From IMG/VR virus record IMGVR_UViG_3300045988_049479, positions 117,652 through 181,651 of that record: a stretch of 64,000 nt of DNA, one strand, 5' to 3'. The notes under the pieces were generated by a model. The model had not been told where the DNA came from and did no database searches. It saw only the letters and a list, made by a program, of their open reading frames with translations. The stretch comes from a virus. The translations under genes were made by a program, and so were the position numbers. Positions 1 through 40,782 of this stretch are shown one piece after another. Position 1 is the stretch's first letter, and each line of letters starts with the position of its first letter.

Positions 1-757
1 ACCCAATGTCAGATTCTAATCCCTTAGAACAATCTGTGTATAATAAGTATAAACCATTTAAATTGATATCCTTTTTAGAGCCATTACCTAACTCAACATA
101 ATTATGAGAACACATTGTTCCTTCGCAAGCTATAGAGTTTATGCAGAGTAAATGGTCCACATATACATTCCACGACTCTAATTTAGACCCAGGTTCTGTT
201 ATCATATCATTAGTCTCTACGGTAATTATCTAGTTATTTGCGTCTATGATAGTTTTTAAAGTTTTCTAGTCTTTAGTAAACATAAACTAGTTTACAGGGG
301 TCTCCTATAATGTAGTTGCTAACTTAGACTTATCTCCAACCCAAGCTAGCTTTTGGTTTATTTGTTCAGCGGAGAAATTTAAATTTTTGTAATTTTCCAT
401 TTATTAGATTTTTAATATTGTAAAGTACAATACTTAACAATTTTAAATTATTTATTCACAAGTCCAAAATCTTTTTTGACTTTGTTTTTAATATCCATTA
501 ATTTAGTAAGATATTCTTGATAATCTGTTATGATAGAAGAATCTGTGCTAAGGTTTTTTGTATAACTATTATACGAGTTGATTAAATCAAATTCTTCATC
601 TATGGTTATAAAACTTCTAATAATAGCTCTTACGCAATCCTTATAATTAGGTTGCCCATTAAGTAAAACCTAGATGAAATTGTACTAAGTTTCAAATTTA
701 GTACTGTCTTTCTCATCTAGTATTTCAACTTCAGCCTCAACTTCTCTTATATCGTAA

Positions 758-2032
758 TTATAATAATAAGTACCGTTCCCAAGTTTTTGAATTACCTAAG
801 GACAAACGTTCATTTGTATTCTATTCGGTTCTAACATAAGGTGTTACTTTAAAATTTATAGGAAATTTGTATCTAAGCAAAGAATAATGTAATTTCTTAT
901 TCTTGCTTTTAAAATAATAGGGTTTGTTGTTATACATAAAGTGCACTCTGAAATGGCTATGATAATCAACCACCTCTATGATATGAATATACTTATTATA
1001 AAACTTAGATATATTGACTTCCTTTCCATTCCAATTTGAGAACTTCAAACCAGTCAAAGTTTCTATCTTTTTCAACAAATTCTTAGAATCACAGAATTTC
1101 ATCCAGCTGAAATAAGATCTCATTCTTCTTTCCAATTCTTCTTTATCAATCTTATTTTGCTTATATAGATTTATAAGCCTAAACATTCTCATTTTTATAG
1201 ATTTTCTTAATAGAACGTGAGTGTGATAAAATTTGTAACCTACAAAATCTACTCCTCTACTTTCTACTGGAAATATCTAGTAGTTAGGTTTTAATTCTAA
1301 ATTAAGAACTTGTTTCAAATACAGTTTTATAGATACTAATACATTTCTCAAATAATTCTTGTCATTACCAAGAATCACAATATCGTCAGCATATCGAAAG
1401 TAGTACTTACATTTTAACTCCTCTTTTATCCAGTGGTCAAAATATGTCAGATATAAATTTGCAAAGAACTATGATAGATAGTTTCCAATAGGAACTCCTT
1501 TGGCTGAATATATTATTTCCTTCAATAGACTTAACAGTTTCTTATCCTTTATTTTCTTCTACAACATCTCATACAGGATGTCATGTGTTATAGATGGATA
1601 AAATTTTCTTATATCCATTTTTAGGCAGTATTTAGTTTCATCTGAGTATTTCTACAATACCTTGAATAAATCATACTCTACCTTATGAATCCCTCTGTTT
1701 CTTATAGAGGAATATGTCTAATCTATAAAAATACTGGTCCAGATAGGTTCCATAATATTCATTATAGCATGATGAGTGATTCTATCAGGGTAATATGGAA
1801 GTCTAAAGATTAATCTTTCTTTAGGCTCATATATTATAAATGTACTATATTCAGAAGTCTAATAGATTAGCTATTTTAATTTGTCTGATAATTCCTTATT
1901 TTCTTCTAATCTATTCTTATCATGCTACTTAATACCACATCGAATTGATTTATTTCTTCTAGCCTTATCATCAGCTAATTCGATGTTTTTCAAATCATAC
2001 ACTCGTTCGTGCAAATATCCTACACGTTTCAA
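758..2032 (-). CDS. DGR-type reverse transcriptase, amber-recoded (about 10 in-frame TAG); start codon uncertain (TTG at 2032 or GTG at 2002)
   Basis: Manual minus-strand translation in a single frame from the TAA at 2036-2038 down to the TAA at 758-760. It contains an RLIFRLPYYPDRITHHA stretch, GVPIGNYLS[TAG]FFANLYLTYFD, FRYADDIVILG (YxDD) and a VDFVGYKF thumb motif. Tracker ORF 821..1192 is its C-terminal fragment; it stops at an in-frame TAG at 821-823 and the frame reads on. Confidence 0.8.
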
Positions 2033-2104
2033 TTTTTATATATTTCATCGGAAGCTTTCGAGATTTAACCTACTAACACCCTTCATTTAACACTACGTTG
2101 TCTT

Positions 2105-2119
2105 TTGCCTAGAGGCAAG
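2105..2119 (-). other. Small hairpin (ttgcc-tagag-ggcaa) between TR and RT
   Basis: Inverted repeat read directly from the sequence. Confidence 0.3.
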
Positions 2120-2173
2120 GATATTACTTAGCAAACTAAAAAAATAAAATAAATTGTTCTAAATATATAATAA

Positions 2174-2271
2174 CTCGACATTGGAATTGGCATTGCTGAC
2201 GTCATTGTTAGAATTGAAATAGCTGAGACCTGCATTGCTGCCATTATTCGCGTTGCTGCCTACTAGCAGTT
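2174..2271 (-). repeat. DGR template repeat (TR), non-coding, rich in AAT/AAC codons in the VR frame (ANNGSNAGLSYFNSNNDVSNANSNVE)
   Basis: Aligns base-for-base without indels to 2373-2470 (offset 199) and to plus-strand 28831-28923. Of 25 mismatches against VR1, 23 fall where TR has A on the minus strand. In the VR frame the TR contains stop codons, so it is not coding. Confidence 0.85.
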
Positions 2272-2345
2272 CTTTTTTGCCAATCAACGGTTTTTAGAAG
2301 TAATATCCTACGATTTATATCTAAATCGATTTTCTATATTTTATC

Positions 2346-3521
2346 TTAAGATACTCTATTTAGAGTCCTAAACCCGACATCGGAACCGGCAAGGCCGACG
2401 CCATAGTTAGAATAGAAACAGCCGAGACCCGCATCGCCGCCAAGCTTCGCGCAGCCGCCCACCCGCAGCGTGCGAAGCTCTGTAGAGGTAGCATTGCAAG
2501 AGTGGTAGTCACATATATAAGTTGTAGCTGAGGCTCCAGTACAAGAAGATGGTATAATCTCTGCTGTCTCTCCTAAGTCAAACTCTTTAATGTATCCATC
2601 TTGCGCTACCTCGTATCCTGCTATGGTCTTGCTGCCAATTACGTCAGTAAACTCTTCCTTGTTTGTGGTAGTATACACACTACTGATTTCATTTGCCGCA
2701 GTTCTTTGAATAACTACTCCATCTAGGTTTGTCCAAATATCTCCAAATGGATTATCAAAACCTCTCCATCTTGGAACTTTAAATGTCTTAGTCGCTACTG
2801 TATCTGTTTCGTTTGTTGCAGTACACTCTGGAATAACTAAATCTTTGATTCCAGTGAAGTTACCAATATCATTACAATAACCACATGGAGTAATAGGATA
2901 AGTTCCATTATATCCAGACCAACTTGTAGCAGAGTTACTCCAGTCTGTAACTCCAGGACCAAGTCCTCCTTGACGATAACCATCAGAAGTAAGTTCGGCA
3001 TTATAGGCAGCCTGGGAGTTAAAGTTAGCATATTCTATTACATAGTTCCAGTAGAATATCCATTTATAATATTCATAGCATAATAATTCAGAACCTGCAT
3101 TTGTAGCATAAGTTCTCATATTAGCTCTAGAAACATTAGTTCTAGGTTTTCCTAAATCGCTTCTAAAAGCATCTTTGGTATCAAGTTCAGTAGTTAGATA
3201 CTCATCGAATTGTGCTCTATTTCCACCACCTCTAAATGCTTCTGTAGTATTGACCACAGACACAGCTTTAGGGGTTGCTGACACAGTATTATCAACGGTA
3301 TTTCTATATGCGTCAATTAATAGTTCTGGTATTTCTACCCATGAATCATCAAGCTTTACTAGAGAAATTCTAACCCATCTTTTATTTCCATTAGAGCCTG
3401 ATTTACCATAAAATTTAGGAGTGTGGACTCTTACAGTTCCATCAGTTCCATCGAGCACAGAAGGAGTACTTCCATCTTCTTTGTAAGCCCAATCGTCCGG
3501 ATATAAATAGTAATTTACCAC
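2346..3521 (-). CDS. DGR target protein 1 (putative receptor-binding or tail-fibre protein with a C-terminal variable domain)
   Basis: Tracker ORF of 391 aa with a GTG start. It has no internal TAG although the flanking genes are TAG-rich. VR1 sits at its C-terminus. The frame stays open upstream through two TAGs to a TAA at 3729-3731, so the true start could be TTG at 3720-3722. Confidence 0.7.
   Translation of the reverse strand: MVNYYLYPDDWAYKEDGSTPSVLDGTDGTVRVHTPKFYGKSGSNGNKRWVRISLVKLDDSWVEIPELLIDAYRNTVDNTVSATPKAVSVVNTTEAFRGGGNRAQFDEYLTTELDTKDAFRSDLGKPRTNVSRANMRTYATNAGSELLCYEYYKWIFYWNYVIEYANFNSQAAYNAELTSDGYRQGGLGPGVTDWSNSATSWSGYNGTYPITPCGYCNDIGNFTGIKDLVIPECTATNETDTVATKTFKVPRWRGFDNPFGDIWTNLDGVVIQRTAANEISSVYTTTNKEEFTDVIGSKTIAGYEVAQDGYIKEFDLGETAEIIPSSCTGASATTYICDYHSCNATSTELRTLRVGGCAKLGGDAGLGCFYSNYGVGLAGSDVGFRTLNRVS
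2373..2470 (-). repeat. DGR variable repeat VR1 at the 3' end of the target gene; GC-rich; encodes ...RVGGCAKLGGDAGLGCFYSNYGVGLAGSDVGFR
   Basis: Differs from the TR almost only at TR adenines (A to G, T or C). The protein ends in a GFR motif typical of C-type-lectin-fold DGR targets. The TAA stop follows 27 nt downstream. Confidence 0.85.
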
Positions 3522-5192
3522 ACCGTTATTTGCTACACATCCTCTGTAAGCGGACTAAATAGGGAGGGATTTATGTAATAGTGGGTTTCCTATTCTAGTA
3601 AGGATAGGAGAAGATACGGTAATATCCCATTCTACTCCATAAGAGTATAAGTCTACGTTACTGCTTAACTCTGTGACTTGTTTGCTTAGACTCTATTGTT
3701 CTTTTTGTAATTCTTCCCAAGCAGTATTAAGAGCATTAAATTGTTCCTCTAACTTAGTACTAGTATCTGCCCACTATGCAGTCCCATCTTCAGAAAAGGT
3801 TAAAATCTATCCAAGTGCTCCTCCAGCAGGTATGTGTTTATTTCCAGAAGTAGTTGGGTGTACATAATTATTTGCATTATCTGCAATACCACTAAGTTTC
3901 TGTTTTTCAGTTTCTGTGTAATTAGCTTCAGAAAGTCCTTTTCCTAATTCTTTATCTACCTTACTTTCCAACTCCGTTTTAGTAGCTAAACCACTTATAT
4001 CCTAGTGTTCCTTTAAATAATTTTCATCATTCTATAACTAAGACACTTTAGTTGGAATGGCACTAGATTTTGCATATGTCTAATCTATAACATTTCCAGA
4101 GCCATCATAGGTAGCCTTTAAGTCATATACGGTTTCTCCAACCTTTATAGATTTGATAGCTGCCATATTATTGTATTATTAAAGTTTCTTCTTCTACATT
4201 ATGATCTATTCCTTCTATGGAGGCAGTTAAGTCTTCAACAGCTTTCTACAGTTCAGCCTTGGTAGCGTAGTTCTTTAATGTATCTGGGTCTATTCCAGAT
4301 CCTCCTATATTTCCTCCAACAACTTTTACTGGTTTTGCTGAGTTCTTAAACTACCCTTCAACCCAAATTGTTCCCATACTATTTAAAATATTAATTGTTC
4401 ATTTTCTCCATCTACCTGTACGTTACCAGAACCAGGCTATATTGCATCTATTTTCTTCTACAATTCGTCTACAGCAGCCTTTATTAATTCTTCCACCTCA
4501 GCTTTTGTATAGTAGCGTTCTGTCAGATATTCACTTCTGACATATCCTGTATCCTATATATCTTTTTCTCCATAAGTACAATAGTACGTATCGTTCTCTG
4601 TCTTATTATTTTCAACTAAGTCATCATAATCTGTTTGTGGAAGACATACCAATTTAGGAACCTCTTCTGTAAGAGCAACTTGCTTTCCAGATGCTAATAA
4701 TCTATTGTCTTCTGTAGTAAGTTTAACAGAACTTTCAATAGTCTGTTCAGTTGTTTCATCTTCTGAACTTTCTCCAGTTGTTCCCTATTGTACTTCTTTT
4801 TCGACAATTTTCTAAATAGTAATATCAGAAGTTTCTATAGAGGTTGATTTTAGAAGCTCTGTGCTAAATTCCTTAGAAGCGGCATCCTAATCTTCCTAAT
4901 ATTTCTTCTAGGTAACAAATATAAAATCGTCATCACCAGTTTCGGGAGAATCTCCTCTTAAACTTTCTTTTGTCACATACTCCTCTGCTATCTAATCGGA
5001 AAGGTCGGTTAATGACTATTGAGTGGCGTATGTAGATTGAGCATTTTCTTTTGTAAGAAACTTTTCATCTACCTACGAGCTAGTGTAGTATGCTTTAATA
5101 TCTTCTGTAGTAACGTAGCTTCCTAGTTTCTATAAACCAGAAACAATTTCATCAATCTATGTCTTTGAGTAATAATTAGTAGCAACCCAGGA

Positions 5193-6251
5193 CTAATACT
5201 GATGTGTAGTATGGTAATTTTGATCTAAGTACTCCTTAGTAATATAGACTTTAGCATCATTTGTTACATCATACACATAGTAATATGTGTCAGGTTCTAT
5301 AGCCTCATCTTCTACCAGTTTTAAATATTCCTCTTCAGTTAATGTAACCAGATTAGGAACATCTGACATCATGGCGAATTGGTCTTCTCCAACAAACAAT
5401 CCATCAGATTTAACATCTACTACTAGCTAATCCTTCCCTTCTACTACTGGAGACTTTATCTATCCTACAGTAATACTTTCTAGGGAACCATCTCCATCTA
5501 CCTTTAAAGTCTTATCTAGCTCATCTTGAATAGCCTATTGGTCTTCGTCATACTATTTCTTTGTAACAAAGACAAAATCATCTCCTTCCATTCCTTCTCC
5601 TCTAAGACTTTCTTTGGTAACAAATATGTCATCAGTTTCTTCCTTAGTATAATGGTTAGATAAGGCTTTAGATAACAAGGATTCTGGGTCCTCTAAATCT
5701 AGATCAGTTTTAGGGGCATAATTCTCAGTTAACTCTTCAAGAGTAGCATACTTGGAAAGGTTAGAGATTGTCTAGTCTAAATCCGTTCTAATCTGTACGA
5801 CAGTAGTATTTAGAGCTTTCTATTTCAACTATTCCTCTATCTTTTTACCCCATTCTGCTGATAAATAAAACTAATCATCATCTAGGCTGTCTTCATATAT
5901 ATAATAATATGTTTCTGCATGAAGATATGTTTTATTTTCGTCTATAGGTTTAAAATCTTCTGTGGTATTTTCAGACCATTCCTTATATTCAGCCTCTGTA
6001 CAGGTGATTATCTAAATAGATTCATAAGAAGCTTTCCAACCTTCTTTGTATTTAATCTTAGACTTATCTACTAGCATATAAATATTTCCGTTATCTATAT
6101 TTGAAACGGTCATGCCTTGATAAGCATATTTCTCCGGAATAGAATATAATTCGTCTAAATTATCGACTACTGTTCTATTATCAAGAGGTTTAGGAGTTTC
6201 TACGGTTAAAGCAACGCCTAATGTAGCATCACCTGTATATTTAAATGCCAT
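5193..6251 (-). CDS. Amber-recoded acidic structural protein; ATG at 6249-6251 overlaps the upstream stop as TAATG; 3' end not determined (frame continues below 5193 through TAG)
   Basis: Manual translation from 6251 down through tracker ORFs 6012..6251 and 5193..5399 stays in one frame, interrupted only by TAG (for example 6012, 5871, 5829, 5820, 5772, 5694, 5553, 5535, 5517, 5466, 5460, 5427, 5193). Confidence 0.5.
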
Positions 6252-7840
6252 TATTGTGATAAAGTAAAGTTAATTTGATGAGGCAATGCTGAAGAATAAG
6301 TATCCTTCTTAGTCCATACTTTATAAGGAAATCCATTTATCTATTCAGTAGAAGTTTCCCAGCCACTTAAATCAACATTTAGGTATCCTAGTCCTCCATC
6401 TACTGTAAATGAATTTAGCTAAGTATTACTTCCAGGTAATTTTATAATAGCCTTTCCACTTAATGAAAATGTAATAATTCCAGAAGATTGTCCAAATGGA
6501 ACAAGACTCTATTTGATTAAACTATCTGTATTACCAGAATACCAAGGGTAGGTAGCAGTCACCTATGCTGTAGTTGATATTGAACCAGCCTCCACCCTCT
6601 TGTCTGTAACCTCTCCCTTGTTGTTAATAAGATATTCTCCAGCAGCATAATTTACGGTACCAGAATGCACATAAACACCGATAGAATCATATGTTTCAGA
6701 TTCTACAGGAGAATCATTATAGGTAATAGTTTCTTCTCTACCAGTTTCCTCTCCAGCATCATTTTTTATAAATGTTAAAGTAGGGGTAAGTAAAGCGGAT
6801 CCTACCTCCACAATCTAAGAGGTGAAGCTATAATACAACTAAGGATAAACCAAATCTCTAACAACAGTAGGAAATAATAGAGTGTCTATAATCTCATTAA
6901 ACGGCTTTCCTTTCAATTTTTCAACTGTAGTTCCTTGAATAACAGTAGAAGTAGTATCATCTGGAAGTTCAGTTTGATAAGTAGCTATAGTTTCTAAACT
7001 TGTCTATATATTTGTGATATTCTCAGTATTAGAATCTACTTTAGAATCAGTGTTCTTCTAAGCTTCCTATACTCCCTTAACTTCTTCCTTTACCTCTGTT
7101 AGAGATGGTTCCAGGTCTTTTACATATATTCCAGGTAGAACTACTGTGGAAGGTTCTCCTTCCTCCTCTACTGGAGGAATTTCCTACTGAATCAGATGTA
7201 TTGCATTATCCTCCTACTAAGATAGAATTACTTCTAGAGTATTATCATCCTTTATTTCTATGGTTTTGGAGTTTCTTAGACTATTAGTTATCCAATTCTA
7301 GATGTTTTTGTCAACATCTATATTTTTGATAGACTCATTAATATCCTCTATTGCCTCATTAATCTAGGTTATTTTCTCAGAAAGATTGTTTATGCCAGTT
7401 CTGTTAGATTCAATTTCTTCTTCAAGTTCTTCCTTAAGTACAGTAATAGAAGTTCTGATATTACTTATATCAACTTTTATTTCCTCTATTTCTTCTGTAT
7501 TAGCTTCGTACTAACTTATAAAGAATAAAGCATAATCTAAGGCATCTTTTACAGTATTGATATTCTCTGCAACATCACTAGTATAAGTCCATTTCTATTC
7601 TATGTACTATACTAAATCTTTCTAGGCTTCTATAGTTCCTTCTATATTTCCCCAAAGAAGACTCTACTCATCAGCGATACCTAGATTCTTTCTAACCTTA
7701 GCTCTTTCTAATTCAGTTCTATATTCTCCAAGATAGTTGTTTCTTAGGAGAGGTATAGGTTCACTTTTTATTAAATGTCCTTTCTTTCCACAAGGCTTTA
7801 TATCAGCATTGCTTACCGAAGTATAAATAGGCTGTATCAT
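6251..7840 (-). CDS. Amber-recoded coiled-coil tail-fibre or needle-like structural protein (about 529 codons, about 20 in-frame TAG)
   Basis: Manual translation from ATG 7838-7840 to TAA 6251-6253 in one frame. The only internal stops are TAG. The frame is closed upstream by a TGA at 7847-7849. Heptad-like, E/K/I-rich sequence. Confidence 0.6.
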
Positions 7841-10800
7841 TATGATTCAATAATTGCTATTTAATAAATTCGTGATTATCTAATTTTACGGGTAGGTTAA
7901 TAAAACAAATTAGATTCAAAATATCCTAATAATCTGGTCTATATCCCTTTCTAACCCTTTTAAGGAAATCCTCATACCTTTTAATAGCCTTTCTTTTAAG
8001 AGCATCCACAACCTATACGTTTATGTTCATGGTGATTGTTACAGAATCCACCGCAAGTACGGAACATTGCTAACAATCTTTCAGCTTCCATGAATTGTTT
8101 AAAGCCTATTAAATAATCTATAATGTTAAGTGTCATCCAGATAAAATCTCTTGCAAATATATCTGCATCATGTTCTCTAGTTAGACACTTATTTAATAAA
8201 GAGTCAAAGAGTTTCTTACAGTAGTTAATATAACACTATTGCAGATTTCCTGTAAAGAATACATCTACCTTACATTTTTTGATAGTAGTTCCTTCTATAT
8301 TTCTCTCAAGGATTTCTTTTACAGTACATTCCTCTAGCTCTCCATCTACTTCTTTATATAGTTTCTCTCCATCAGTTATATAGATAGTTTCATAATACTC
8401 CTTGTATTCATCAGATGAATTTTCATACCATTTCATATTAGGAAGAATTATGTGGTCTACTACATAATATCCATCTTCTTTCACCTTAAATGTACAAGAG
8501 TCTAAATCCTCTGTATGGTCATTGAGAAGTACGTCTATCAAAGTAGCATCTCCTATACTAACTTTTATGATAGTATTTAGGGTAGCACTTTCACTATACT
8601 TATAAGAATCATAGGAAGTTACTACCTCTAAATCTTCATCAATATACTATCCATATTCCTTTGAAAAGTCTTCAATAGTTATTTCCCCGTTAATCTGGGT
8701 ATGTATATCAATACTAAATTCCATATTATAATAATTAAGACTCAGTAGTAGGCCATTGACCATATTGAGCAGGAGTAGAAAATGGTTTCCACTTACCTTC
8801 TTGTCGTATACGTCTAGACATAAAAACTGAACTAAATGATAAACTAATATCTTGAGGATAGTCTGTCCATGTATATGACTAACCTTCAGGAGTCGGTGGT
8901 AGACTATTTAATTTACCAGCTGGTTTCCCATTCCAATAATAATTATAGTCATATGCCTTAGTTGGAGTAACAGTCGTTGTTTCATGTCCTTCTGAATCTA
9001 CATATAGAGGATTTCCATCCTCATCTGTTTTCTGCTTATACTCAATAACTGGAGTTATTCCCTCAGTTCTAGTGTATATATTCTAGATAATAGTAGAAAC
9101 ATCGCTTGCCACAATCTCATAAATAGTAGTTCCCTGAGATTCGTCAGCTCCCTAGAAAGTAAATTTAGTTCTTTTCCAGATGTATGGATTCTCTTCAGTT
9201 GGAAGTTCAAAAGTATCAGTCCACTATTTAGTAGATAATTTTATCTCAGATTCTTCAGCAGTATCAGCAGGTAAGTAATGAATCTTAATAATAATATTAT
9301 TTACCGCTTCACTAGAACCAGAAAGATCTGACACCTATTTAAATAGTTTCTTTAAATCTTCTTCCACATTTGATTTGGAACCAGAAGCATTACTAATAAT
9401 TACTGAACCATCTGAAATAGGATAAATCTATTGCTAATCCTTATTATATACAATTGTTCCAGTTGCCATATTAATGTATTTGTCTTATTTTGTCATTATA
9501 TGGATTTCCATCATGAAGCTAAGCTAACTCTATTTCAGTTCTCTTTTCTTCTATATCCATTTGTCTATCTTTATATGTAGAATCAGATTGAGCTTTGAGC
9601 CAGTTAACTTTATATTCTAACTACATTTTCTGCTACTCTAATCCTAATCTCTATTCATCCAAACTTTCTATCTTCTACTAAGCTTTCTATAGTTCTTGCT
9701 GTAACTGCTGTGCCTATTGTGAAGTTTCTTCCAGTTTTTCCTATAGCTGCTATAGCTAATTGTTTTCTTCTTTACGAATCTATACTGCTTTCTTAACCTT
9801 ATATTTAAGGTCTGTAAGACTCTTAGCAGTTAGTGCTTCAAATATGATGTCAGGATCCATTTGCTGACTTTTAACAAACTCTGGAATAATGGCTTTAATA
9901 GTTTGTAAATCTTCCATTACTTCAGAGCTAGAAGTTATATGGATGTCATAATCAGTAACCGTAAAATATTCTGGAAGTGCTGTAAATATCTGCTAGTATT
10001 TATCTCCAAGTATAATAGTACCAGTCAATCCTTTCTTATATGTTATTTTAGCCTAGTTTAGACTATCCAATAATATCTCACAAGTGATTAGGTCCATCTA
10101 CTAGAAATAATGCTTGGTTACTATGTAAGAGTTAGTAACACCTTGCTTAATATTAGTTACAGCATCGTGAGTTTCTATTCCATTTAATCTTTCTCTAAAT
10201 ACTCCAGTTATAGATGATGTAGTTTGTTCTACTGATTGAATTGCTAATTCAATAGCCTATACAGCCTAAGCTTTTAAGGTATCATCAAATCCATTGTATA
10301 TCTAGTTAGGTGCTTGCGCTCCGTCATTTCTCTCTTCCTAAGTAGAATCAATCCACATGATACCACCCTTCTTGTATGCTAACCATTTCTACACTCTTTC
10401 TGGCCATTTTACGCCTAGGTTAGTAGGAAGCAATGACATATCCATGATTACTCCAGCAGTACCGCTGTTAGCTATCAGGTTATCCCTATAATAATTTAAC
10501 AAGTCATATCTATCCTGTAGATGTGCACACTTTAATATCAGAGAGTACGGTTGTTGAGAACGATTTAAGAAATATACCCCATTCACAGACAAAGAGCAGA
10601 AATTAGGATTATCTTTTGACCTCATAACAGTCTTGTCTAGACCTCTCAGAATATATATTTCTTCTCCAATTCTAATGGTATTGTATCTCTACATTACAAA
10701 ATCGTCATCAGTTTCTATCCACTCTACATCATAAACAGGAATTAACTAAAATCTATGAGCACTATATTCATTATCTGGATATCCAGGAATAGTTTCATGA

Positions 10801-11839
10801 TTCTAGTCTTCGTTTACTATAGTACAAGTGTCACCATAAACTCTTCTATAAACTGCAGCTGAATCATCGGCTCTCCATTCATCTTTTAGTCTTTTCAGAT
10901 CTTCTCTAGAGATTTCTTTTCCGTATTTAGCTAATATCTAGCTTTTACTCATCCATTTTCTAACTACTACTCTATACGAATTTCTAACATATGGAGATTC
11001 TGGATTCCTATCTACGAAAGTATTTAAAGGATTCAGAACTTCTATTTCTATGTTAGTTCCAGAAGATGATGATTTTACTCTGAAAAATGTATAGCCAGTA
11101 ATTAATAAATCTGTAAGTAACTATCGGAGTTTAGTTATTAAATCGGTTTCTCTAGACTGCATAATATAATGAATAATATTCTATGCAGCTATCTCATATT
11201 GAGAAATAAAAGACTAATCAATGTCTTGAATAATTTTATCTAACTAAGTCTTCACGGCTTTATCTGTAATATCTTTTCCGTCGATAAATTTCAGAATAGA
11301 ATTACTTAAATGGTCTCTAAGAAATTTAACTATTCCTTTAGTTATTTCTAACTATTTTTCTCTGGTGATATTACTAATGGTATCTGAATCCTTACAAGAA
11401 ATCTTCGGAAGGATAGGGGTTCCTAGATATTCCCCTACTAGAGCATCTACGTGCTTTTTTAGTAATGGTGTAAATTCTACAGAAGTAGGACTACCTATTC
11501 CAAAGTTTTCTTCCAGGTAACGAAACTATTCTGGGTCTCTCTTTCCGTTATAGTAATTATAGGCTTTCTATAATTCGTACTTATCATATACAAGCTCCGC
11601 AATAGCCTCGTTCGTCTTGTCTATCAGTTCTTTTTCTTTCATAACATAAATTATGCTGTTCTGGAGGAAGTTTAGTTGCATTATAGTATTTAACTCTTTG
11701 TAACTTCCTACTTCTTAATTCTTCCTTTATAAATGGGAGAAATTCTTCATCAGGTAAATCAGCTATAATGACTAAAGGCATCTCTGACCTATCAAAGTTA
11801 AACGATACCTTATAACCAACTGGATCTAGGTTCTGAATT

Positions 11840-14200
11840 TCAAGCCCACCTACGTATTCCATTTTGTACAAGTCTCTCATATAACCTAGGATCACTTGTT
11901 TCAATTCTGTATGGGTCATCGTATTCATTTTTTTGTATGTTAGTTTCAAAAGTCTTAGAAGTTGGTATAACCCCAAATCTTTTGATTCCTCTCTCGTCGT
12001 AATAATAACCATAATCTTGGAATTGTTCAACTTCTTTTTCAACAAGCACTGGCTATCTTCCTGACAATTCCTAGTCTGCCAATTCTGTCATTCCCACAGC
12101 TGCTACAATATCGAATTTACCTTTATTCTCATCATTATATCCAGTAAATTGGTCTAACATTTCTTCAAACCATATAGTATGACAGAAATCCTCAATAAAG
12201 GCTGCTGTCAAATCAGTATGTTGTTCTATAATAGTTTTGGTAGCGGGTGTTCCGTACTATTTAGTAGTTCCATTCTTGACGTCTGTTAGAGTAGCTCTAG
12301 GTCTTTTCATAAAGTAGTTTAAACAACCCTTTTCTCTAGCCCAGGTAATCATACCTACACGGGTAGCTTCTATGTTTATTCTACAATTATAGTATCTAGC
12401 TAAACACATAGCTATTTTATAGGCTTCTCTAATGTCATTAGGTCTGTCTTTATACATAGCAACATACTACGGTTCGTTTAGACCAAATGCTCTTCTTTTT
12501 ATAGTTATACAGAAATCAGAAGGATCTCTTGTTTCTTTTGAAGTTTGACTAGCTCCTATATCAATACCGTCTATTCCTGCAACATATAAATCATGCATTT
12601 CTTTGTACGCTGGAGATTCAAATTCTTCTCCCCTTTCCTCGGCTTCCTATCTAAGTTTATCCATCTACTCTTTATACAAATCAGACCATACAGGATGTTC
12701 AAGTATTTTTACTTTTCCGTTAATATTAGGAATCCATTTAAAACCATCTATATTATCCTAGGTGTGTTTATTATTTTTATAGAAATAGTCTATGTATCCA
12801 GATTCTGGTCTTGGTCCTATTTTCTTAAGTCTTATATTAGCTAACTGGTCCGCAATAAGAATCTTGTTGAACTTGTTAACACCTTCAAGATTAAATGCTT
12901 CTTCTGCATTCCAACATCGTTCAGCACACTTCTTTAGATAGTCATCTGGAACTGCTAATAAATTGTCGCGCTCTTCCTATAGATACTTCTTATATTCTAC
13001 TGTATTACATACACCTCTATGGTCCATGTATTCTGAATTTAGAGACTAGACAAAATATGGAATGAAGAACCCACTTTCAATAGTAGTCCCATCCTGGGTA
13101 TAATTATGTCTAAATGGAAGAACTTTGTAAGCTTTTGGATTATAATATATCTTCTTAAGACCTGCTAATGGAGCGCCCATATCACCACCAGTACCTCCAA
13201 ATAACATTGTTCCACGAGGTTTACCTTGAACTTCACAAAGCTCTTGTCCCTACACTACAGCAGTATCTAGTCCAGGCCAAGATCCTGCTTCATCATATAT
13301 TAATAAGTCAACACGGTCTCCACGAATATTAGATGCCTTAGCTCCGTTTATTCCAACTACTTCCGATTTAAATCCAACATCCTCAAACTGTCCGTTTACC
13401 TTAATCTGTTTACCGGACTTCTTTCTTAAGTCTTGGTCAATCAAACGTAGTTTGAAGAATCCTCCTCCTGTACAAGTATTCAAGAATGTTAAAGCATTAT
13501 CAAACTTACTAAAAGTACCTTTAAGGAAGGTATCATTAAAACAGGTAATCATTACTCTGCTTCTTCTGATTACTGAATACATTCTTGCAGATAAGGATGC
13601 ATTTATTTCAGAGAATCCAATAGAACGAGCTTTCATAAGAGCTGCGTGTTTATGCAGAACTCTAGCCATCTATAGATAATGAAAGAACATATAATGAGAT
13701 GCGAAAAATATAGGAAAGTCACTACTTGTTCCTTCTCCAGATGCCTTGTTATCATCAATAATAGGAAGCTAGTAGAAGTTTAGGAAGAAATAGTTATCTC
13801 CAGTAATTGTATAACCATTAACAGTCATTCCATATTTACATCTTCTATACTATTCCTTCCAAAACTCATTATATCTCTTACTATCTTTTAGATATGGACA
13901 ATACTTTCCAGTTTTTCTATATACTTCTCTGGTCTCAGTAAACCAATCTGGGTCGAAATCAAGACCATGTGTTTCATCTATTGGTCTATATCCAGTTATT
14001 TCATAAGATAAAGTAGGGTCAAATACCTCTATCTTATCTCCTCTTTTTACATCCCAATAATCAGCATTTTTGCCTCTTTCCTCTCTTATCTTCTATACTA
14101 GTTCTCTAGCTTCTTTGGCATCCTCTTTTTGTTCTTTCTCTCTTACCTAATCTACTATATTCTAGATTTCTTCAGGTAATATTTTTTTCTTTCTAGGCAT
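11840..14200 (-). CDS. terL: Terminase large subunit-like protein, amber-recoded (about 16 in-frame TAG)
   Basis: Tracker ORFs 13250..13669, 12257..12457 and 11840..12049 are all in the same frame (start mod 3 = 1). I checked 12050-13250 triplet by triplet and found only TAG, no TAA or TGA. An ATG at 14198-14200 begins MPRKKK... A Walker-B-like VDLLIYDEAGSWPG and a C-terminal nuclease-like segment are present. The gene ends on TGA at 11840. Confidence 0.5.
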
Positions 14201-15582
14201 AATTAAAAGTCTCCTGGGTCAAAGCCGTCTGTAGCTCCACCTCTTACAGTAGATTGTTCTGTAAGCTCTTTCTTAACCTGCTCTTCTAGTGTTACTAATT
14301 CTTCATGAACTTTATGAAGAGTAGCCATTTCTTTCATTACCTTTTCAGCTTGAAAGACGGGTTTGCCATTATTATCACGTTCATTTAAATCTACTATAGT
14401 ATCAAAATAATCAATAAACTAGTCAGCTGCTCTTTTAGCTGCTTCTAGAAGTTTTATTGATTTGTTAGAATCCTACAATGCTCGGTATTTTCTACAGGCT
14501 TCCCTGAATAACGGGTCATTAAATTCGGATTCAGATAGTCCAGAGTCACTAATAGCTTCATCATGTCTTTCATGTTCTGAATATTGGCTATAGGGACTCT
14601 TCCAATCAATAGCTAGATAAATGTAAGATAATTCTCTAGTTACTCGTTCCTTGTCAACAGATTTATCTCTCTGTATCAAAGCCTTAAACTCTTTAACTAG
14701 AAGAAGCTCTGGTTCATTTATTTCTAACTATTTAGTTAAAGTGTTATAATTAAATACATTCATACTCATCAATCATTAACATTAACATCTTTAATCTTTT
14801 TATTTCATTTTAGAACCGCATTTACTTACTTTCATTTTAGAACCACAAGCATCTTTCTTAGCATACTTTGTTCTATCTGGAACCCATTTTCCATTTTTAA
14901 AGTTTCCCTTGTGTCCTCTATTTGCCATGACCTCCTAGTCATTATATTTATTAATAGATACAGAATCTCTGGATGCTTCATCCTTTGCAGATTTCATATC
15001 CTTTTTATACTAAGCTCTTCCAGCCTTGAACTTGTCAACTTCATTAGCTTTCTTAGTAACCTTAGTTCCTTTCTATGCTTTTTGGCAAGCTTTGCAGATT
15101 CTTCCTCCCTGTTTAAAATAAACAAGTTCCTCTCCTTCTGGGCATACTCCTTTTAATTTTTTATAGTATTCTAGTTTAGCTCCAAGTCTAGCCATAACTC
15201 CGCCTTGCATCTTCTACATAAATTCTTGATACTTGGCTTTGATTCCATCTTCTCCAAGCTACTCAGCGTAAGCCTATAAATCTTGCTCTGATTGTAGTTG
15301 TATCCCTTGTGCTTGGGCATCTTGTATCAAGTATGCCATGAATGCTTTCTGTAATTCTTCCTAATTAGCCATTACTCTTCTACTTTAATTAAATCCTTTG
15401 TATTAAATACTGCTTCCTGCATTAATCCAGAATCAGTAAACCATCTACATCTTAGTCCTCGTAATCCTTGGTTATCTTTAAATAAAGCTGCTTCTCTTCT
15501 TAGAACAAGCATAACTGGAGAGTGCATTACTTTACACTACCGTAAAGTAACACAATCCCCAGGCTTAAAATAAACTTTTTCA

Positions 15583-16185
15583 TCAATTGTTTCCATGCTT
15601 CAATTCGTCTCTTCTTTCAGTTAGTTTCTCATTAACTACAGCCATGATTCTATTCTCATTAACTACTACAAATCCTAGTTTATAGAATGGAACCATACAT
15701 TCACTAGCTATTGTATAAAATACAATATCTCCAGGCTTCAAGAACTCACACTTATGTCCTACTTCTATCACAGTTCCTACCTTAATAAATTGTTGCTCTT
15801 CTTCAATTTCTCCAGTCTCATTAGATTTATAAGTAGGAGTAAATCCACCTAAATCAGTAATAAGACCGCTTTTAGTAGTTTTTATTTTTTGGAATGGGTT
15901 TTGTTCAAAGGGTTTAATTAATGCATACCCATACATCGGCATAATTTCAACTCCATTCATATCGTTAGATAATGATTTAGCGTAATCCTCTAGTGCCTGA
16001 TTATGTTTAGAGAATTTATCTTCTAACTCATCTACTGCGGTATTAAACTTCTCTTGTTTTTCTCTTAATAATGTTTGGTCTGCAGCCTCTCCATTTAAAA
16101 TAAAATGTTCTCCCGTACCTTCCATTCCAGTTAATGATAGTGCTAGTTTTTCGTTACTGTTTAATTCTGTTCTTAAAGTTTCCAT
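15583..16185 (-). CDS. Protein with C-terminal GroES/cpn10-like domain (standard code, no TAG)
   Basis: Tracker ORF of 200 aa. The C-terminal half reads ...ALIKPFE...KTTKSGLI...VGTVIEVG...KPGDIVFY...AVV, which resembles the cpn10 fold pattern. Confidence 0.4.
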   Translation of the reverse strand: METLRTELNSNEKLALSLTGMEGTGEHFILNGEAADQTLLREKQEKFNTAVDELEDKFSKHNQALEDYAKSLSNDMNGVEIMPMYGYALIKPFEQNPFQKIKTTKSGLITDLGGFTPTYKSNETGEIEEEQQFIKVGTVIEVGHKCEFLKPGDIVFYTIASECMVPFYKLGFVVVNENRIMAVVNEKLTERRDELKHGNN

Positions 16186-16193
16186 AATTCATT

Positions 16194-16577
16194 TTACCAT
16201 TTACATAAATCACAATGTTCATCTTCAATTCTTGTTTTATTCTCTAATATACAACCACATTCATCGCACACTTCCCCAACAGATGTTTGTAATTTATGGG
16301 AACAAGCGTCACAAATTTTTAATCTTTTGGTTGTCAAATCTTGATTTATTCCGAATATATTGAAATATATACTTTTCAATATTGTTAAAGGTTTAATAAA
16401 TATTGCTTTAATCCATTTCCATATCATATCTTCTTCCTCCTTCTCGTTTATATTTTGGACAGTAAGTATATAATGCTTATCTGGTTTATATAATATAGGA
16501 GTTCCATAGATTACCATTTCCCTGCTGGGCAATGTTTCTTTTCGTTTGGAATCTTCTTCTCTAGTAAACATCCACAT
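16194..16577 (-). CDS. Cys-rich zinc-ribbon protein (paralog A)
   Basis: Tracker ORF. C-terminus reads ICDACSHKLQTSVGEVCDECGCILENKTRIEDEHCDLCKW. Confidence 0.4.
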   Translation of the reverse strand: MWMFTREEDSKRKETLPSREMVIYGTPILYKPDKHYILTVQNINEKEEEDMIWKWIKAIFIKPLTILKSIYFNIFGINQDLTTKRLKICDACSHKLQTSVGEVCDECGCILENKTRIEDEHCDLCKW

Positions 16578-16726
16578 CCCTTTATATACCCTTCTTTAGG
16601 GCTTATACTTATATCATTATTCTTTGGATTTAGATACAAATGCCCATTACATAATCCATTATCTTGGTCACATATTGGACAGCGTCTACATATCTCAAAT
16701 CTTTCTTCTATTTCCTCTAGTGTCAT
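16511..16726 (-). CDS. Cys-rich zinc-ribbon protein (paralog B); overlaps paralog A by 67 nt in another frame
   Basis: Tracker ORF. C-terminus ICRRCPICDQDNGLCNGH...GCGCLLEKKIPNEKKHCPAGKW is homologous to the paralog A C-terminus. Confidence 0.4.
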   Translation of the reverse strand: MTLEEIEERFEICRRCPICDQDNGLCNGHLYLNPKNNDISISPKEGYIKGCGCLLEKKIPNEKKHCPAGKW

Positions 16727-16728
16727 AA

Positions 16729-17643
16729 TTAATATTCAATACGTTGACGTTTTCTTTTATTTTCTGCCAATATAGATTCCTTCTTATAGAAGGCTAGCAT
16801 TTTTATAACCTCATCTTTTAGATATGGCAAATGATATACTGTCATATTGTCATTATGGTCGAAATGTACCAAAACCAAATCCTCTATTTCAAACTCTGGA
16901 TTTTTCTTTTGAATCATCCAAGCATAAGTACTTAATTGTAAAGTATAGTGCCAGTAATTAACATCATCTAAATTATTTAGAGGATATTTCATCTTAACAG
17001 AAGTTTTGGTTTTAGAATTGAAGAAACTCTTAGTTTCTATTTTCTTATTGGTCTTCCAGTCTCCTATAATTATCTTATTTCCTCTTTTAACTAATAAGTC
17101 AATCTGTCCTGCTATTCTTAGCTTTCCATCATCCGATACTCTAGATATTAAATACTCAGGATATACACCATTCTCTAAGTCTAATTCATTGTGGTCTTTT
17201 ATACACTCGAACTTGCCACCTATTTGATATTTACTAAGGTCTATGTTCTGTTTCTTTTTATAGAAAGAGTTTTCCAAATCTGCATGGATTTTAGTTCCCC
17301 TCTCGCATGAGTTTCTATTCTCTAAATCCCAAGCATCTAAGATAGCTTGTTGCTCTTTATTAAACTCGTCTTCTGTAATGTTATGAAGTTCAAGTAGAAC
17401 TTTATCAAATTTCTTAGTGTTCAACAAAGACTTTTTTTCTATAGCCCAATCTTCTTTAGGTAAGAGTTTCTCTAGTGCTTTATATGCTGACCAGAACTCC
17501 TTATCAAATGGTTGGGTGAAAGAATGAATTAAAGTCGTTACAGATATAAACTTCTGTTCTGGCTTTGTAACATCATAATAAATATGAGCTTCTTCCTCAA
17601 AAGCTATGTTCCCATTTTGTTTTGTAATTTTACTTTTGTCCAT
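16729..17643 (-). CDS. PD-(D/E)XK family nuclease-like protein (standard code)
   Basis: Tracker ORF of 304 aa. The stretch GQIDLLVKRGNKIIIGDWKT fits a D...(D/E)xK nuclease core. Confidence 0.45.
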   Translation of the reverse strand: MDKSKITKQNGNIAFEEEAHIYYDVTKPEQKFISVTTLIHSFTQPFDKEFWSAYKALEKLLPKEDWAIEKKSLLNTKKFDKVLLELHNITEDEFNKEQQAILDAWDLENRNSCERGTKIHADLENSFYKKKQNIDLSKYQIGGKFECIKDHNELDLENGVYPEYLISRVSDDGKLRIAGQIDLLVKRGNKIIIGDWKTNKKIETKSFFNSKTKTSVKMKYPLNNLDDVNYWHYTLQLSTYAWMIQKKNPEFEIEDLVLVHFDHNDNMTVYHLPYLKDEVIKMLAFYKKESILAENKRKRQRIEY

Positions 17644-17757: not shown

Positions 17758-18099
17758 ATGTCTAACAGTAAGAAAATTACAACATTTGGGTGTCCAATTT
17801 TCAAAAATGGGTCGGGCATTCACATTAAAGAGAAGAACAGAGGCAAATTTACAGCATCTGCCAAGGCAGCAGGAGAATCTGTACAAGAACACGCTAAGCA
17901 TGTACTAAACAATCCTAACGCTACCCCTCTTTAGAAGAAGCGAGCTAATTTTGCTAGAAATGCTTCTAAATGGAAACACGAAGATGGGGCTAAGATACAT
18001 AAACCGAGTGGACATAGGTCTATTCTAGATAATGGATGGATTCCTACTACTAGATTAAAGAAGGGAACTTATGGATTTATTAAAACTAAGAAACGATGA
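17758..18099 (+). CDS. Small very basic protein (113 codons) with one in-frame TAG (17932-17934); plus-strand gene embedded in the leftward module
   Basis: Codon-by-codon manual translation from ATG 17758 to TGA 18097-18099. The tracker missed it because the TAG splits it into fragments under 60 aa. Confidence 0.45.
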
Positions 18100-18173: not shown

Positions 18174-18308
18174 CATGGACTATAACAAAGCAACTTTACA
18201 CGCGGCAACAGGTCGTACTCTCTTACTTCCTGGATGGAGAGGATATTTTTATTGGGATTATTCTAAAAAGGAATTGAATTTCAGAAACGGAGATTATCAT
18301 TTAGATAA
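18174..18308 (+). CDS. Tiny ORF (44 aa) ending TAA TAA
   Basis: Manual translation; no other support. Confidence 0.2.
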
Positions 18309-18605
18309 TAAATAGCTTAGAGAAAAGGGAGTCATGGAGAGAACTGATTGGTACTATATTATATAACAAAATAGGCGAGCCTAGAGATTAGGTTCGCCTA
18401 TTTTTATTTAACATTATACTTTGTATCATAAGTACAAGTGATTCTATTTATACCATCCTCCCACCAAGGTTTATCTGATGGCTATCTAATACCACTTGGG
18501 ATGGTTATTGTAGGAGTAGAAGTTTCTACTATAGCATCTACTATTTTAAATAATGTATCCAAGTCAAATTCTGGAAATTCATTATGTAAGTTTGTCAATG
18601 TCTTT

Positions 18606-19549: not shown

Positions 19550-19566
19550 AACTATTAATTTTGGCG

Positions 19567-19638
19567 TTGCCCTACTAGGATTCGAACCCAGACTAAATGA
19601 TTTAGAGTCATCTGTGCTGACCATTACACCATAGGGCA
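19567..19638 (-). tRNA. Amber suppressor tRNA-Gln(CUA)
   Basis: Minus-strand sequence tgcccta-tg-gtgtaatggtcagcac-a-gatga-CTCTAAA-tcatt-tagt-ctgggttcgaatcctag-tagggca-a. The 7 bp acceptor is perfect, the D and T arms are canonical, and the anticodon stem carries one G.U pair. Loop CTCTAAA gives anticodon CTA. The D-arm, variable loop and T-arm nearly match tRNA-Gln(TTG) at 34204-34275. Confidence 0.85.
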
Positions 19639-19775: not shown

Positions 19776-20177
19776 TCATACATATGCTTTCAGTTGTTCT
19801 ATTTTCATAGTTACCACATTAGATAATGCCATTCTGAATTTAGTAATTCCAGCTCTTACTGATTCCAATTTTCCACTTTCCAAACATTCTTGAATTTTAT
19901 TCAGTTCGGATTCCCCTAGATATTCGCAGACATCTATAAATAAATCATCATCTAAAGATTCTAAGTATTTCTGGAATTTGCCTACTTCTTCATTAGCTAG
20001 ACAGCTTTCCTCTTTCTATCTCTCATAAGATATTAATAAGAATAAAGAATCATCTGTAGATTCCGCTTTAATGGTTAGACCATTACTTGATAGATAATAC
20101 TCCTAGTTCTTATTAATTGCATCAACGAGATTCTTAAACTCGTCCTAATTTAGTAATGTTTCTAAGTCTGTAATCAT
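19776..20177 (-). CDS. First gene of the leftward unit, small protein (133 codons) with 3 in-frame TAG
   Basis: Manual translation from ATG 20175-20177 to TGA 19776-19778. TAGs fall at 20145, 20103 and about 20010. Confidence 0.4.
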
Positions 20178-20941: not shown

Positions 20942-21957
20942 AAGATTGGGGAGAAATCCCCTTTCTTTTACATACAAATAATCTTTGTAGAAATGGACAT
21001 AAGAAAAAAGTTTAAGACTATAAAGTGTTTGTATAATTGGGGCATAATCTATGACCCAAAGACTAATGAAAAGTTAAATTTCAAATCCAAACGTGTTTAT
21101 TGCGTAACTTCTTGGGCTTGGATTATGACCTATCAAAAGTCAGAAGAAGATATTCCTGAGATAATTAGGATAGTCTTTGTAGATTAACTCTAAGGTACTA
21201 TGAGTTTTAAATAAAGTGCCCACATGAACCCCATCATCGGAACGTTGGTTAACGGGGAAAACAACATCACAACAAATCAAATCAAAGTTTTTGTTTAGTT
21301 TTAGGATTGTATCTGGCAGCTTGGAAAGACAAGCAAAATCTTTATACCTATCTGCTAATAGGTTTAGTGTTCAACGCGAAAATTCGGTAAAGGAAGGAGA
21401 GAAATTGTCCACTAAAAAGACCCTCAATTTCCGGACTTTTTCCGATTTTCAAAAAATCCGCCAGAGTAGGAGTTATATAGCTCACACTCTCTATGGACAT
21501 TATTTAGTATTTAGCCTATAAAAAGGCAACAAAAAGCGAGGCTACGCAGAAGAGCCTAACACCAAAAATAACTGCTACAAATTCTATGTGCATATTCGCA
21601 AACTTGAGCACTATAGGATTTAGGTTGAGCTGTAAGGATTGGTCACTTATAGCAATATTATGAGTACTGCTGATATGTCAGTGACCGTACATATCACATA
21701 TAAAATATGTTATACAATTATGTTAGAAGTTGCCAGGTCTAAGAAGCCTGATTAAAATCTCTAGATAGTAAGAGAGAACCTCATAAGGGTTCATTTTCCA
21801 TCTCGAACCTATTCGCAAGTTTATAGACTAGCTATCTATAAATTTAGTGATGGAATACCAACGAAGTTGGTGTTCCCGCTTTGCGAACGTTGATAACGTC
21901 CTCAGCATGGAAAACTGAGAAATAATCTCCTATCTTATTCTAGATATAGATAGGATT

Positions 21958-22026
21958 TCCCTACTAGTATAATGGATTGCGTCTCCTTTAAAGGAGAAGA
22001 TTCTGGTTCAAGTCCAGAGTAGGGAA
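21958..22026 (+). tRNA. tRNA-like gene (69 nt) with non-canonical anticodon arm (tctcc-TTTAAA-ggaga, 6-nt loop; anticodon would be UUA or UAA)
   Basis: Acceptor tccctac/gtaggga pairs perfectly. T-arm is tctgg-ttcaagt-ccaga. It lies inside a 1 kb ORF-free region. Confidence 0.35.
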
Positions 22027-22628
22027 CTACTAAGTTGCAGTATTCATATTATTGTCGGACCATAATGGGTATGCCCTGAGACTATGCAGTCGTTGTGAAA
22101 CAACTCAAAGTATTGTGGCACAGGAAGGTCTGGTCGTTACTCTTTGCTTATTTTATTAATTTCCATTTTGACTAAAAGGCACAGCGGTGCCTTTACTCTC
22201 AAGATAAGAACAACCTTTACGTGGTTTGAGAGATAAGTAAGCTGCTTTAGCTGAAACTAATAGTTCTAGTAACAATTAAAAATATTTACCATGAAAGAGA
22301 AAATGAAACGTATTGAGGAGTACACTAAAGCAATGAGAGAGCTACTAGATAGACTCTTGGAGCAAAACCCAGATTCAGAGAATGAAATCTATGATGAAAT
22401 ATGGGGAGCTTATGTTGCAGGCATGAAGGTGTTCTTATAACTCCTATTCTAGCTGAGAATTAAAACTAGCTGGCTTTTATCACTCTTTGTAAAAGCTCAA
22501 AAATTAAAAAGAGAAATCTAGAACGGTAAGCCCGGCTCTCTTCATCCTTTAACTGATTTAGAAGTAAAACAGAAATTAGTTGGCAGCCTGGAATAGACAG
22601 GTATTTTTAACTAAAAATTATAGAAAAA

Positions 22629-29522: not shown

Positions 29523-30078
29523 GGAGCAGTCCAGGCTATAGGCTGGTGTATTCTAGCTATATTCTGTGTATTATTGCTTCTTGGATGTATATTAGACTAA
29601 CTAATTGGTTAGCCCTCTGGAAGGGTGGCAGAGTCAGGTTTAATGTAATCGTAAAGATGAAAATCTAATACAAATTTTGTAAAAATGAACGCTTGGGAAA
29701 GTTAGTATAAATCTCATCAAGGAAATTTAGGACTAGGAAGAGCTATAGCATACTATACTGCTCATTGCATTCCGGTCCTAATTCCCTTGAATGATACATA
29801 GAAATATGACATTGTAGTAGATAAAGAGGGTTTGAAGAGAGTATCAGTTAAAACTACTCAACATTAGGTAAAGAGTGGAAATTATGAAGTCTTGTTGAAG
29901 AATTGCGGAGGTTCATCTGGAGATTCTAAGATTAGACATTTTGATAATTCTACTTGTGATGTAGTATTTGTAGTAGTTATAACTGGGGACATGTATGAGA
30001 TTCCCTCAAGTGAAATAAATGTTAAAGGAGCCTTGACATTAACCAGTGATTGGGATAAATATAAGGTTTCATTATAAT

Positions 30079-40696: not shown

Positions 40697-40782
40697 CGAC
40701 GAAACAAGGCTCCACAGCAGTTACAAGTTGTAACTGGTCTTATCTCCGAATAGCTAGTCTTACGGGGTGGAGAAGTAGTCAC

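Follow-up and report, generated by a model that had tools for sequence, protein, structure and literature searches.

The 64,000-nucleotide (nt) stretch analysed here (the window) covers positions 117,652 to 181,651 of the IMG/VR virus record IMGVR_UViG_3300045988_049479 and has a G+C content of 35.7%. The GC skew flips sign near 20 kb; the genes leftward of about this point are on the minus strand, those rightward of it on the plus strand. The leftward genes include those for a terminase large subunit (TerL), a portal, a tail protein and a diversity-generating retroelement (DGR), along with three genes free of TAG codons and an amber suppressor tRNA gene; the rightward genes are interspersed with a large tRNA array (Table 1). 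We confirmed that the leftward gene set uses genetic code 15, in which TAG (amber) is a sense codon and TAA and TGA are the sole stops. We further consider it very probable that this packaging, tail and DGR gene set belongs to a Zeta-type crAss-like gut phage in which the difference in code gates late functions.

Every minus-strand gene from the left edge of the window to position 15,596 contains in-frame TAG. The 11 minus-strand genes between 448 and 15,372 hold 129 in-frame TAG in 4,710 codons (0.8-4.3% of the codons of each gene) and neither an in-frame TAA nor an in-frame TGA, and all 11 terminate on one or other of these two codons. Because TAG makes up only 27% of the out-of-frame stop triplets in the DNA of these genes, the probability that all 129 in-frame stop triplets would be TAG is ~3e-73. 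Open reading frames (ORFs) defined under the standard code (code 11) are TAG-free by construction, so we preferred ORF coverage, which is not circular, to TAG counts as the test of recoding, counting on each strand ATG-started ORFs of at least 50 amino acids (aa) selected by greedy choice. With TAG as a sense codon, coverage of the minus strand at 1-15,600 rose from 0.229 to 0.892, the median ORF from 72 to 294 aa and the longest from 257 to 786 aa. On the plus strand at 20,400-64,000, with RNA genes counted in, the same change moved coverage from 0.821 to 0.836. Likewise, stop-to-stop ORFs of at least 100 aa on both strands cover 30% of the first 20 kb under table 11; when TAG counts as sense they cover 91%, and the shift in the remainder of the window is far smaller. 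All late genes have their first TAG within codons 4-80, and thus no useful product would be expected from these genes under the standard code. TAG accounts for 55% of the glutamine codons of the late block, in which CAG is depleted. The base following a sense TAG (+4) did not differ from that following CAA/CAG (p = 0.42), and TAG codons lie slightly nearer the 5' end than CAA/CAG, a weak effect (Kolmogorov-Smirnov p = 0.04).

The original prediction, made from the sequence alone, had placed an amber-recoded late structural module between about 15,400 and 758. Recoding indeed extends throughout this interval, and the coverage of the block is restored under code 15, but the block reaches beyond both ends: it runs off the left edge of the window, continues up to 15,596 and is joined by a further recoded gene at 19776-20177. 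In close relatives, recoded genes go on past the position of the left edge and include one for a protein of ~2,170 aa with 38 TAG. The per-gene TAG counts given in advance were correct to within one or two: 16 in the 786 codons of the TerL-like gene, exactly as counted; about 20 in the gene at 6251-7840, for which we counted 19 in 529 codons; and about 10 in the reverse transcriptase gene, for which we counted 9 in 424-425 codons. The predicted TAATG stop/start overlap at 6249-6253 is present, and TAG is, as stated, absent from the four long ORFs (671, 652, 516 and 470 aa) as well as from the genes at 15583-17643. The label of "fibre" for the product of 6251-7840 gained no support beyond weak coiled-coil matches in PHROGs, Pfam and PDB.

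The window contains a complete DGR, composed of a reverse transcriptase, a template repeat and variable repeat pair and a tail-protein target. The two repeats are 76% identical, and 22 of their 24 mismatches fall at adenines of the template repeat (coding strand). With nine TAG in its gene, the DGR reverse transcriptase needs amber suppression for its own synthesis. One TAG-free ORF of 98 aa (11584-11880, minus strand), which overlaps the end of the TerL gene and the start of the portal gene, is a candidate gene and is called in relatives (87-98 aa).

Table 1. Genes, repeats and RNA features of the window (window coordinates)
Position	Strand	Feature	In-frame TAG	Remarks
1-400	-	Recoded gene, N-terminal part	4	Runs off left edge; homolog in relative L015 is 888 aa
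448-837	-	129-aa protein	3	phrog_11557
758-2032	-	DGR reverse transcriptase	9	Probable TTG start, TAA stop; phrog_1423 (4e-107), RVT_1 (2e-18)
2172-2269	-	DGR template repeat (TR)
2346-4166	-	Tail protein, DGR target	8	phrog_5302 (3.5e-82)
2371-2468	-	DGR variable repeat (VR)		At 3' end of tail gene
4168-4377	-	69-aa gene	2
4383-6251	-	622-aa structural-block protein	23
6251-7840	-	529-aa protein	19	TAA stop overlaps ATG of next gene (TAATG)
7996-8763	-	255-aa protein	2
8735-9469	-	244-aa protein	7
9471-11681	-	Portal	32 (4.3% of codons)	phrog_6547; crAss001 gp20, PDB 7QOG (E 4.8e-11)
11840-14200	-	TerL	16	TGA stop; phrog_6681 (5e-60)
14203-14769	-	188-aa protein	3
14800-15372	-	190-aa protein	7
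15372-15596	-	74-aa gene	1	First recoded gene of the block
15583-17643	-	Three genes: 200-aa protein, 127-aa zinc-ribbon protein (DUF6171-like), 304-aa PD-(D/E)XK nuclease	0	TAG-free island
19566-19638	-	Amber suppressor tRNA, anticodon CUA, 73 nt		ARAGORN and Rfam
19776-20177	-	133-aa gene	3	Head of leftward gene set, upstream of tRNA(CUA)
21725-21931	+	RAGATH-14 RNA (Rfam RF03145)		156.6 bits (gathering 149.1)
21958-22027	+	Second suppressor-family tRNA		6-nt anticodon loop UUUAAA
25908-51772	+	~27 tRNA genes among small ORFs
29685-30077	+	PDDEXK_5 endonuclease	3	Pfam domain spans the TAGs
31031-32986	+	SPFH/Band-7 protein
34204-34276	+	tRNA-Gln(UUG)		Closest paralog of tRNA(CUA), 78% identity
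36793-37437	+	GIY-YIG (NUMOD1) homing endonuclease	3	Pfam domain spans the TAGs
44585-45161	+	tmRNA-like gene (Rfam RF00023)		63.1 bits (gathering 47); not called by ARAGORN
55427-56440	+	OmpA-like outer-membrane protein
58321-61070	+	NAMPT (nicotinamide phosphoribosyltransferase; phrog_448, 2e-182) and ribose-phosphate pyrophosphokinase-like protein (phrog_619)		NAD (nicotinamide adenine dinucleotide) salvage

Suppressor tRNA and partition of the two codes

The amber suppressor tRNA(CUA) is set apart from the plus-strand array of ~27 tRNAs; it shares the strand of the recoded block and precedes it by ~4 kb on the upstream side. Orthologs of this tRNA in relatives are also found upstream of TerL, on the TerL strand. 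Judging from sequence comparison, it is an intact, diverged copy of the phage tRNA-Gln(UUG), with which it has in common the D arm, the U1-A72 and G2-C71 pairs and an A discriminator; the next-best tRNA of the window is 69% identical to it. Across six distinct orthologs the cloverleaf is 100% paired, with seven compensatory pairs, and the anticodon loop CUCUAAA is invariant. A gene begins 17 nt after tRNA(CUA), and no Rfam match to a theta or hepatitis delta virus (HDV)-like ribozyme was obtained beside this tRNA at E<=1.

Between the suppressor gene and the recoded block, the three same-strand genes of the island at 15583-17643 contain 21 CAA/CAG codons and no TAG, an outcome with a chance probability of ~5e-8 at the TAG share of the block. 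The orthologs of these genes, at 47-98% identity, are devoid of TAG in all five recoded relatives, in which the structural genes are TAG-rich. Because the island is TAG-free in all five recoded relatives, the code partition is maintained gene by gene by purifying selection and not by drift. One of the three island proteins is the PD-(D/E)XK nuclease (16729-17643), which matches PF12705 above the curated cutoff (7.6e-06); its gene adjoins the TerL region and is syntenic in relatives. The recoded block begins with the gene at 15372-15596, whose start shares 14 nt with the end of the adjoining TAG-free gene, and the TAG-free and recoded genes are probably co-transcribed. Since the code boundary coincides with this overlap, a gate would probably operate within one transcript and act in translation.

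On the plus strand, the genes comprise ~9,400 codons, including 277 CAA/CAG, and nearly all of them avoid TAG. The claim that the early genes are TAG-free thus stood for the ORFs named in it and for nearly all plus-strand genes, but not for the two homing-endonuclease genes, each of which carries three TAG. The code partition of the neighbours is not followed by these mobile endonuclease genes. Two small plus-strand ORFs within the minus-strand region (17758-18099 and 18175-18366) contain one TAG each; the former encodes 58 aa under code 11 and 113 aa with a basic tail under code 15.

We propose that tRNA(CUA) decodes the in-frame TAG codons in a host that would itself use the standard code and whose glutaminyl-tRNA synthetase would charge the suppressor. 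The TAG-free genes would be translated from the start of infection, and full-length TAG-bearing proteins would be produced only when the suppressor had accumulated and could outcompete release factor 1 (RF1). The difference in code might then constitute a translational gate on virion, packaging and DGR or other late functions, probably within one transcript.

Several observations weigh against this gating scheme. Two homing-endonuclease genes with TAG reside inside the standard-code plus-strand block. Nowhere in the window is TAG proven to be an actual stop: after each of the six TAG-ending ORFs of the plus strand, a TAA or TGA follows 3-9 codons further on (median 6), and because the spacing to the next stop is the same after TGA-ending ORFs, these neighbouring stops leave termination at TAG unproven. 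The suppressor gene belongs to the leftward set and is located downstream of the gene at 19776-20177, which has three TAG of its own; a simple scheme in which the suppressor is made early fits poorly, because tRNA(CUA) sits behind a TAG-bearing gene. Among the scanned proteins of the window, which represents about one-third of the genome, there was no release factor, aminoacyl-tRNA synthetase (aaRS) or RF1 antagonist, and the timing of suppression and the charging enzyme are elements of the scheme that we infer. An assignment of the host through the OmpA-like gene was dropped, as its matches were confined to phage-like contigs in metagenome-assembled genome bins with the conflicting labels "Bacteroides sp." and "Clostridium sp.", which do not demonstrate a host in the Bacteroidota.

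The strongest alternative is that code 15 applies uniformly and carries no regulatory meaning, with TAG read as glutamine during the entire infection, for instance through immediate production of the suppressor or because the host also reads TAG as sense; the TAG-free genes would then result from codon bias, gene age or horizontal origin. Uniform decoding would accommodate the TAGs inside the two endonuclease genes, the position of tRNA(CUA) outside the presumed early block and the nearby TAA or TGA codons, given which no plus-strand gene strictly needs a TAG stop; in addition, a public gene caller ran the full contig as code 15 without obvious damage. It is at odds with the plus-strand genes, in which treating TAG as sense does not increase ORF length, whereas more than half of the glutamine codons of the late block are TAG, and with the conservation of the TAG-free island on the recoded strand of five relatives. 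Furthermore, where hosts of recoded phages have been examined, their code was the standard one (Borges et al., bioRxiv 10.1101/2021.08.26.457843). On balance, we regard a uniform code as improbable and favour translational gating of the late genes.

As to the division into early and late genes, TAG use clearly separates one set of genes from the other and does so in relatives too, but the plus-strand block does not consist of replication genes, and "early" is a label drawn from gene content. Besides the tRNAs, the tmRNA-like gene and the genes for NAD salvage, SPFH/Band-7 and OmpA-like proteins (Table 1), this block encodes AAA ATPases and membrane proteins. No lysis genes were identified in the window. 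A promoter and terminator scan of 14-22.7 kb returned promoter-like sites at the frequency expected from shuffled sequence, and a search for the Bacteroidota-type TAnnTTTG motif gave nothing decisive.

Reading of TAG as glutamine

Glutamine occupies most TAG columns in the full-length TerL homologs from databases, and we set these homologs aside, since their DNA contains TAG that had been translated with code 15. Because such homologs make the comparison circular, we used codon-level alignments and a standard-code relative. In a codon alignment of TerL with that of four recoded relatives, TAG and CAA/CAG replace each other in both directions. For 12 genes aligned across six related loci, the partners of the window TAG codons are TAG (189), glutamine codons (105), Thr (30), Lys (25) and Glu (25). 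Thus, glutamine accounts for 105 of the 280 non-TAG partners (38%), a share close to the 44% found at the CAA/CAG columns of the window itself, compared with 1-4% at columns of other residues. Summed BLOSUM62 scores over the TAG columns were highest for glutamine (507), followed by Glu (265). MT835470.1, with 25-50% protein identity, is a standard-code relative (table 11 coverage 0.93) whose orthologs have no TAG; it has glutamine at the TAG columns, in 21 of 60 cases (35%) against a background of ~4.5%. Together, these comparisons support the reading of TAG as glutamine in the packaging, tail and DGR block.

Decoding of TAG as a different residue (Glu, Lys, Tyr, Leu, Trp or pyrrolysine) appears very unlikely. 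The default label of ARAGORN for tRNA(CUA) is "Pyl", and some TAG columns have E, K or T in relatives; however, glutamine is by far the commonest non-TAG partner and its BLOSUM62 sum is twice that of the next residue, TAG differs from CAG, the codon depleted in late genes, by a single transition, tRNA(CUA), which folds into a normal cloverleaf, is a paralog of tRNA-Gln and not of the Pyl type, and no Pyl genes were seen. That the TAGs are true stops, marking pseudogenes, assembly or sequencing artefacts or rare read-through, is a possibility of negligible weight: the code 11 ORF coverage of only 23% would agree with it, but neither TAA nor TGA interrupts the frames over as many as 786 codons, domain matches extend in full length across the TAGs, many independent assemblies share the architecture with partly different TAG positions, and any product of the portal gene demands efficient read-through at each of its 32 TAG.

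Structured RNAs and tRNA array near the divergent junction

On the plus strand, immediately to the right of the junction between the two gene sets, a RAGATH-14 RNA is followed after 26 nt by a second suppressor-family tRNA. This RAGATH-14-tRNA unit is kept in 15 IMG/VR relatives (L017-L031), in which the anticodon of the second tRNA is UUA (ochre type) in 10, CUA in four and degenerate in one; normal copies have a 7-nt anticodon loop. The 6-nt loop of the window copy, with its 1-nt deletion, was seen in assemblies from three different samples and is thus not an assembly error. In one further relative (L003), a more diverged tRNA(CUA) occupies the equivalent position, with no detectable RAGATH-14. 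We also attempted to evaluate ORF coverage with TAA as sense in the relatives with a UUA tRNA and dropped this measure: since genuine stops are mainly TAA, the ORFs merely merge and the values carry no information. Near the equivalent divergent junction of relatives, a RAGATH-1 hammerhead ribozyme was found (L005, 654-740, minus strand).

The papers searched yielded no literature on RAGATH-14. The closest parallel is provided by the theta (HDV-like) ribozymes beside phage suppressor tRNAs (PMC10879173), likewise structured RNAs coupled to suppressor-type tRNAs in recoded gut phages. Unlike these, the element described here is RAGATH-14, ~190 nt long, located 5' and not 3' of the tRNA and with no known cleavage activity. 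It might serve as a processing or regulatory element of the suppressor tRNA, as theta ribozymes do, and strain-level changes in the second suppressor could tune the time or strength of read-through of TAG and possibly of TAA. That the conserved RNA module at ~20-22 kb, with tRNA(CUA) on one strand and RAGATH-14 and the second tRNA on the opposite one, controls the code switch is a tentative idea, which we consider rather unlikely.

Overall, ARAGORN detected 28 tRNA genes in the window. The array includes two tRNA-Tyr(GUA), three tRNA(CAU) and two tRNA-Cys genes, as well as a gene at 40615-40697 that was called, oddly, as "tRNA-Tyr(AUA)"; a further tRNA (42627-42699) was recognized by Rfam only. 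In the transfer-messenger RNA (tmRNA)-like gene, a tRNA-like domain is accompanied by a 253-nt insertion and by a possible tag frame (ATYSEVRMAA) with UAA as its stop; the gene could be relevant to rescuing ribosomes when read-through occurs at the TAG stops of the host.

Phage lineage and related recoded phages

Over 20.4 kb, the window shows 100% identity to a human-gut contig of 192,268 bp (ENA ERZ919607 k127_81310), and relatives with TerL at 73-91% identity are found on contigs of 180-196 kb. The best annotated tblastn matches of TerL, at 24-29% identity and with E values down to 1e-40, come from Crassvirales (Suoliviridae and others), Azobacteroides phage ProJPt-Bp1 and Flavobacterium phages, and the portal is of the crAss type, matching crAss001 gp20. 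Genes for a crAss-type major capsid protein, IHF and a giant RNA polymerase with a DxDxD motif would lie outside the window. A megablast search of the first 20 kb against GenBank phages produced no match. Yutin et al. 2021 (PMC7886860) defined the Zeta group of crAss-like phages, in which genomes measure 145-192 kb and carry numerous tRNAs, suppressors among them, introns and inteins are abundant, and TAG or TGA is reassigned, for the most part in late genes. The hallmarks found here are the 192,268-bp contig, the 28 tRNA genes, the homing endonucleases and an intein-containing TerL homolog, and we infer that the phage is a member of the Zeta clade. The intein-containing TerL belongs to relative P0003 (1,131 aa, Hom_end and LAGLIDADG), and another relative, L006, carries extra GIY-YIG, LAGLIDADG and HNH genes upstream of TerL.

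Three described Zeta genomes (ctoVY1, cthgQ11 and 3717_85572) measure 182-189 kb with ~35% GC, carry 24-27 tRNAs including a CTA suppressor, and contain amber codons in signature structural genes, a DGR reverse transcriptase (~414 aa) with amber codons and mobile endonucleases; TAG elsewhere in these genomes is soon followed by another stop (PMC12386605). The phage studied here resembles them in its size of 192 kb, 35.7% GC, 28 tRNAs, tRNA(CUA), recoded TerL, portal and reverse transcriptase genes, the DGR and the homing endonucleases. In contrast, the table in that report includes no tRNA with a UUA anticodon, whereas relatives of the window carry one beside RAGATH-14.

Similarities also extend to the crAss-like phages of ~105 kb with recoded TAG for which a "code switch" model was put forward (Borges et al., bioRxiv 10.1101/2021.08.26.457843), in which replication and other non-structural genes use the standard code and structural and lysis genes contain TAG. 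Common to both are TAG as glutamine in structural genes, a suppressor tRNA and no dedicated aaRS or release factor found, and in other crAss-like phages the glutamine assignment was validated by metaproteomics (Peters et al. 2022, PMC9523058). However, the genome considered here is about twice as large, its TerL is 26-29% identical to those of classified Crassvirales, and its suppressor lies in the gene set of the recoded strand, followed by the conserved TAG-free island.

The recoding had been likened to that of both crAss-like and Lak-like phages, and the first comparison is supported by the TerL matches, the portal and the nuclease. Lak megaphages of Prevotella share sense TAG in late and structural genes and suppressor tRNAs, but exceed 540 kb and in some cases encode release factor 2; here, TerL and portal are crAss-like and no release factor was seen in the window. 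With a contig of 192 kb, the phage does not fit the Lak-like label, and membership of that group was ruled out on this size, that of the relatives (180-196 kb) and the crAss-like TerL matches. The phage phAss-1 ("Phassvirus"; PMC10607447) resembles the present one in virion genes with TAG as glutamine, a large tRNA set and the lack of a dedicated aaRS; ~28% of its ORFs are interrupted by TAG and it has several tRNA-Sup-CTA. It differs in belonging to an unrelated lineage of 136 kb with predicted Bacillota hosts.

To conclude, the features of the window match those published for Zeta crAss-like phages with amber recoding; the phenomenon had been described before in this phage group, and no new principle is involved. 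Annotation of such genomes needs table 15, as table 11 fragments the TerL, portal, tail, reverse transcriptase and DGR-target genes and blocks classification. The RAGATH-14 and second suppressor tRNA unit, its UUA variants and the tmRNA-like gene may be worth following up by RNA specialists. For the biology of these phages, the window provides a clean example of two genetic codes in one phage genome, with a sharp code boundary inside overlapping genes that is conserved in five recoded relatives and fits the published idea of translational gating of late genes.

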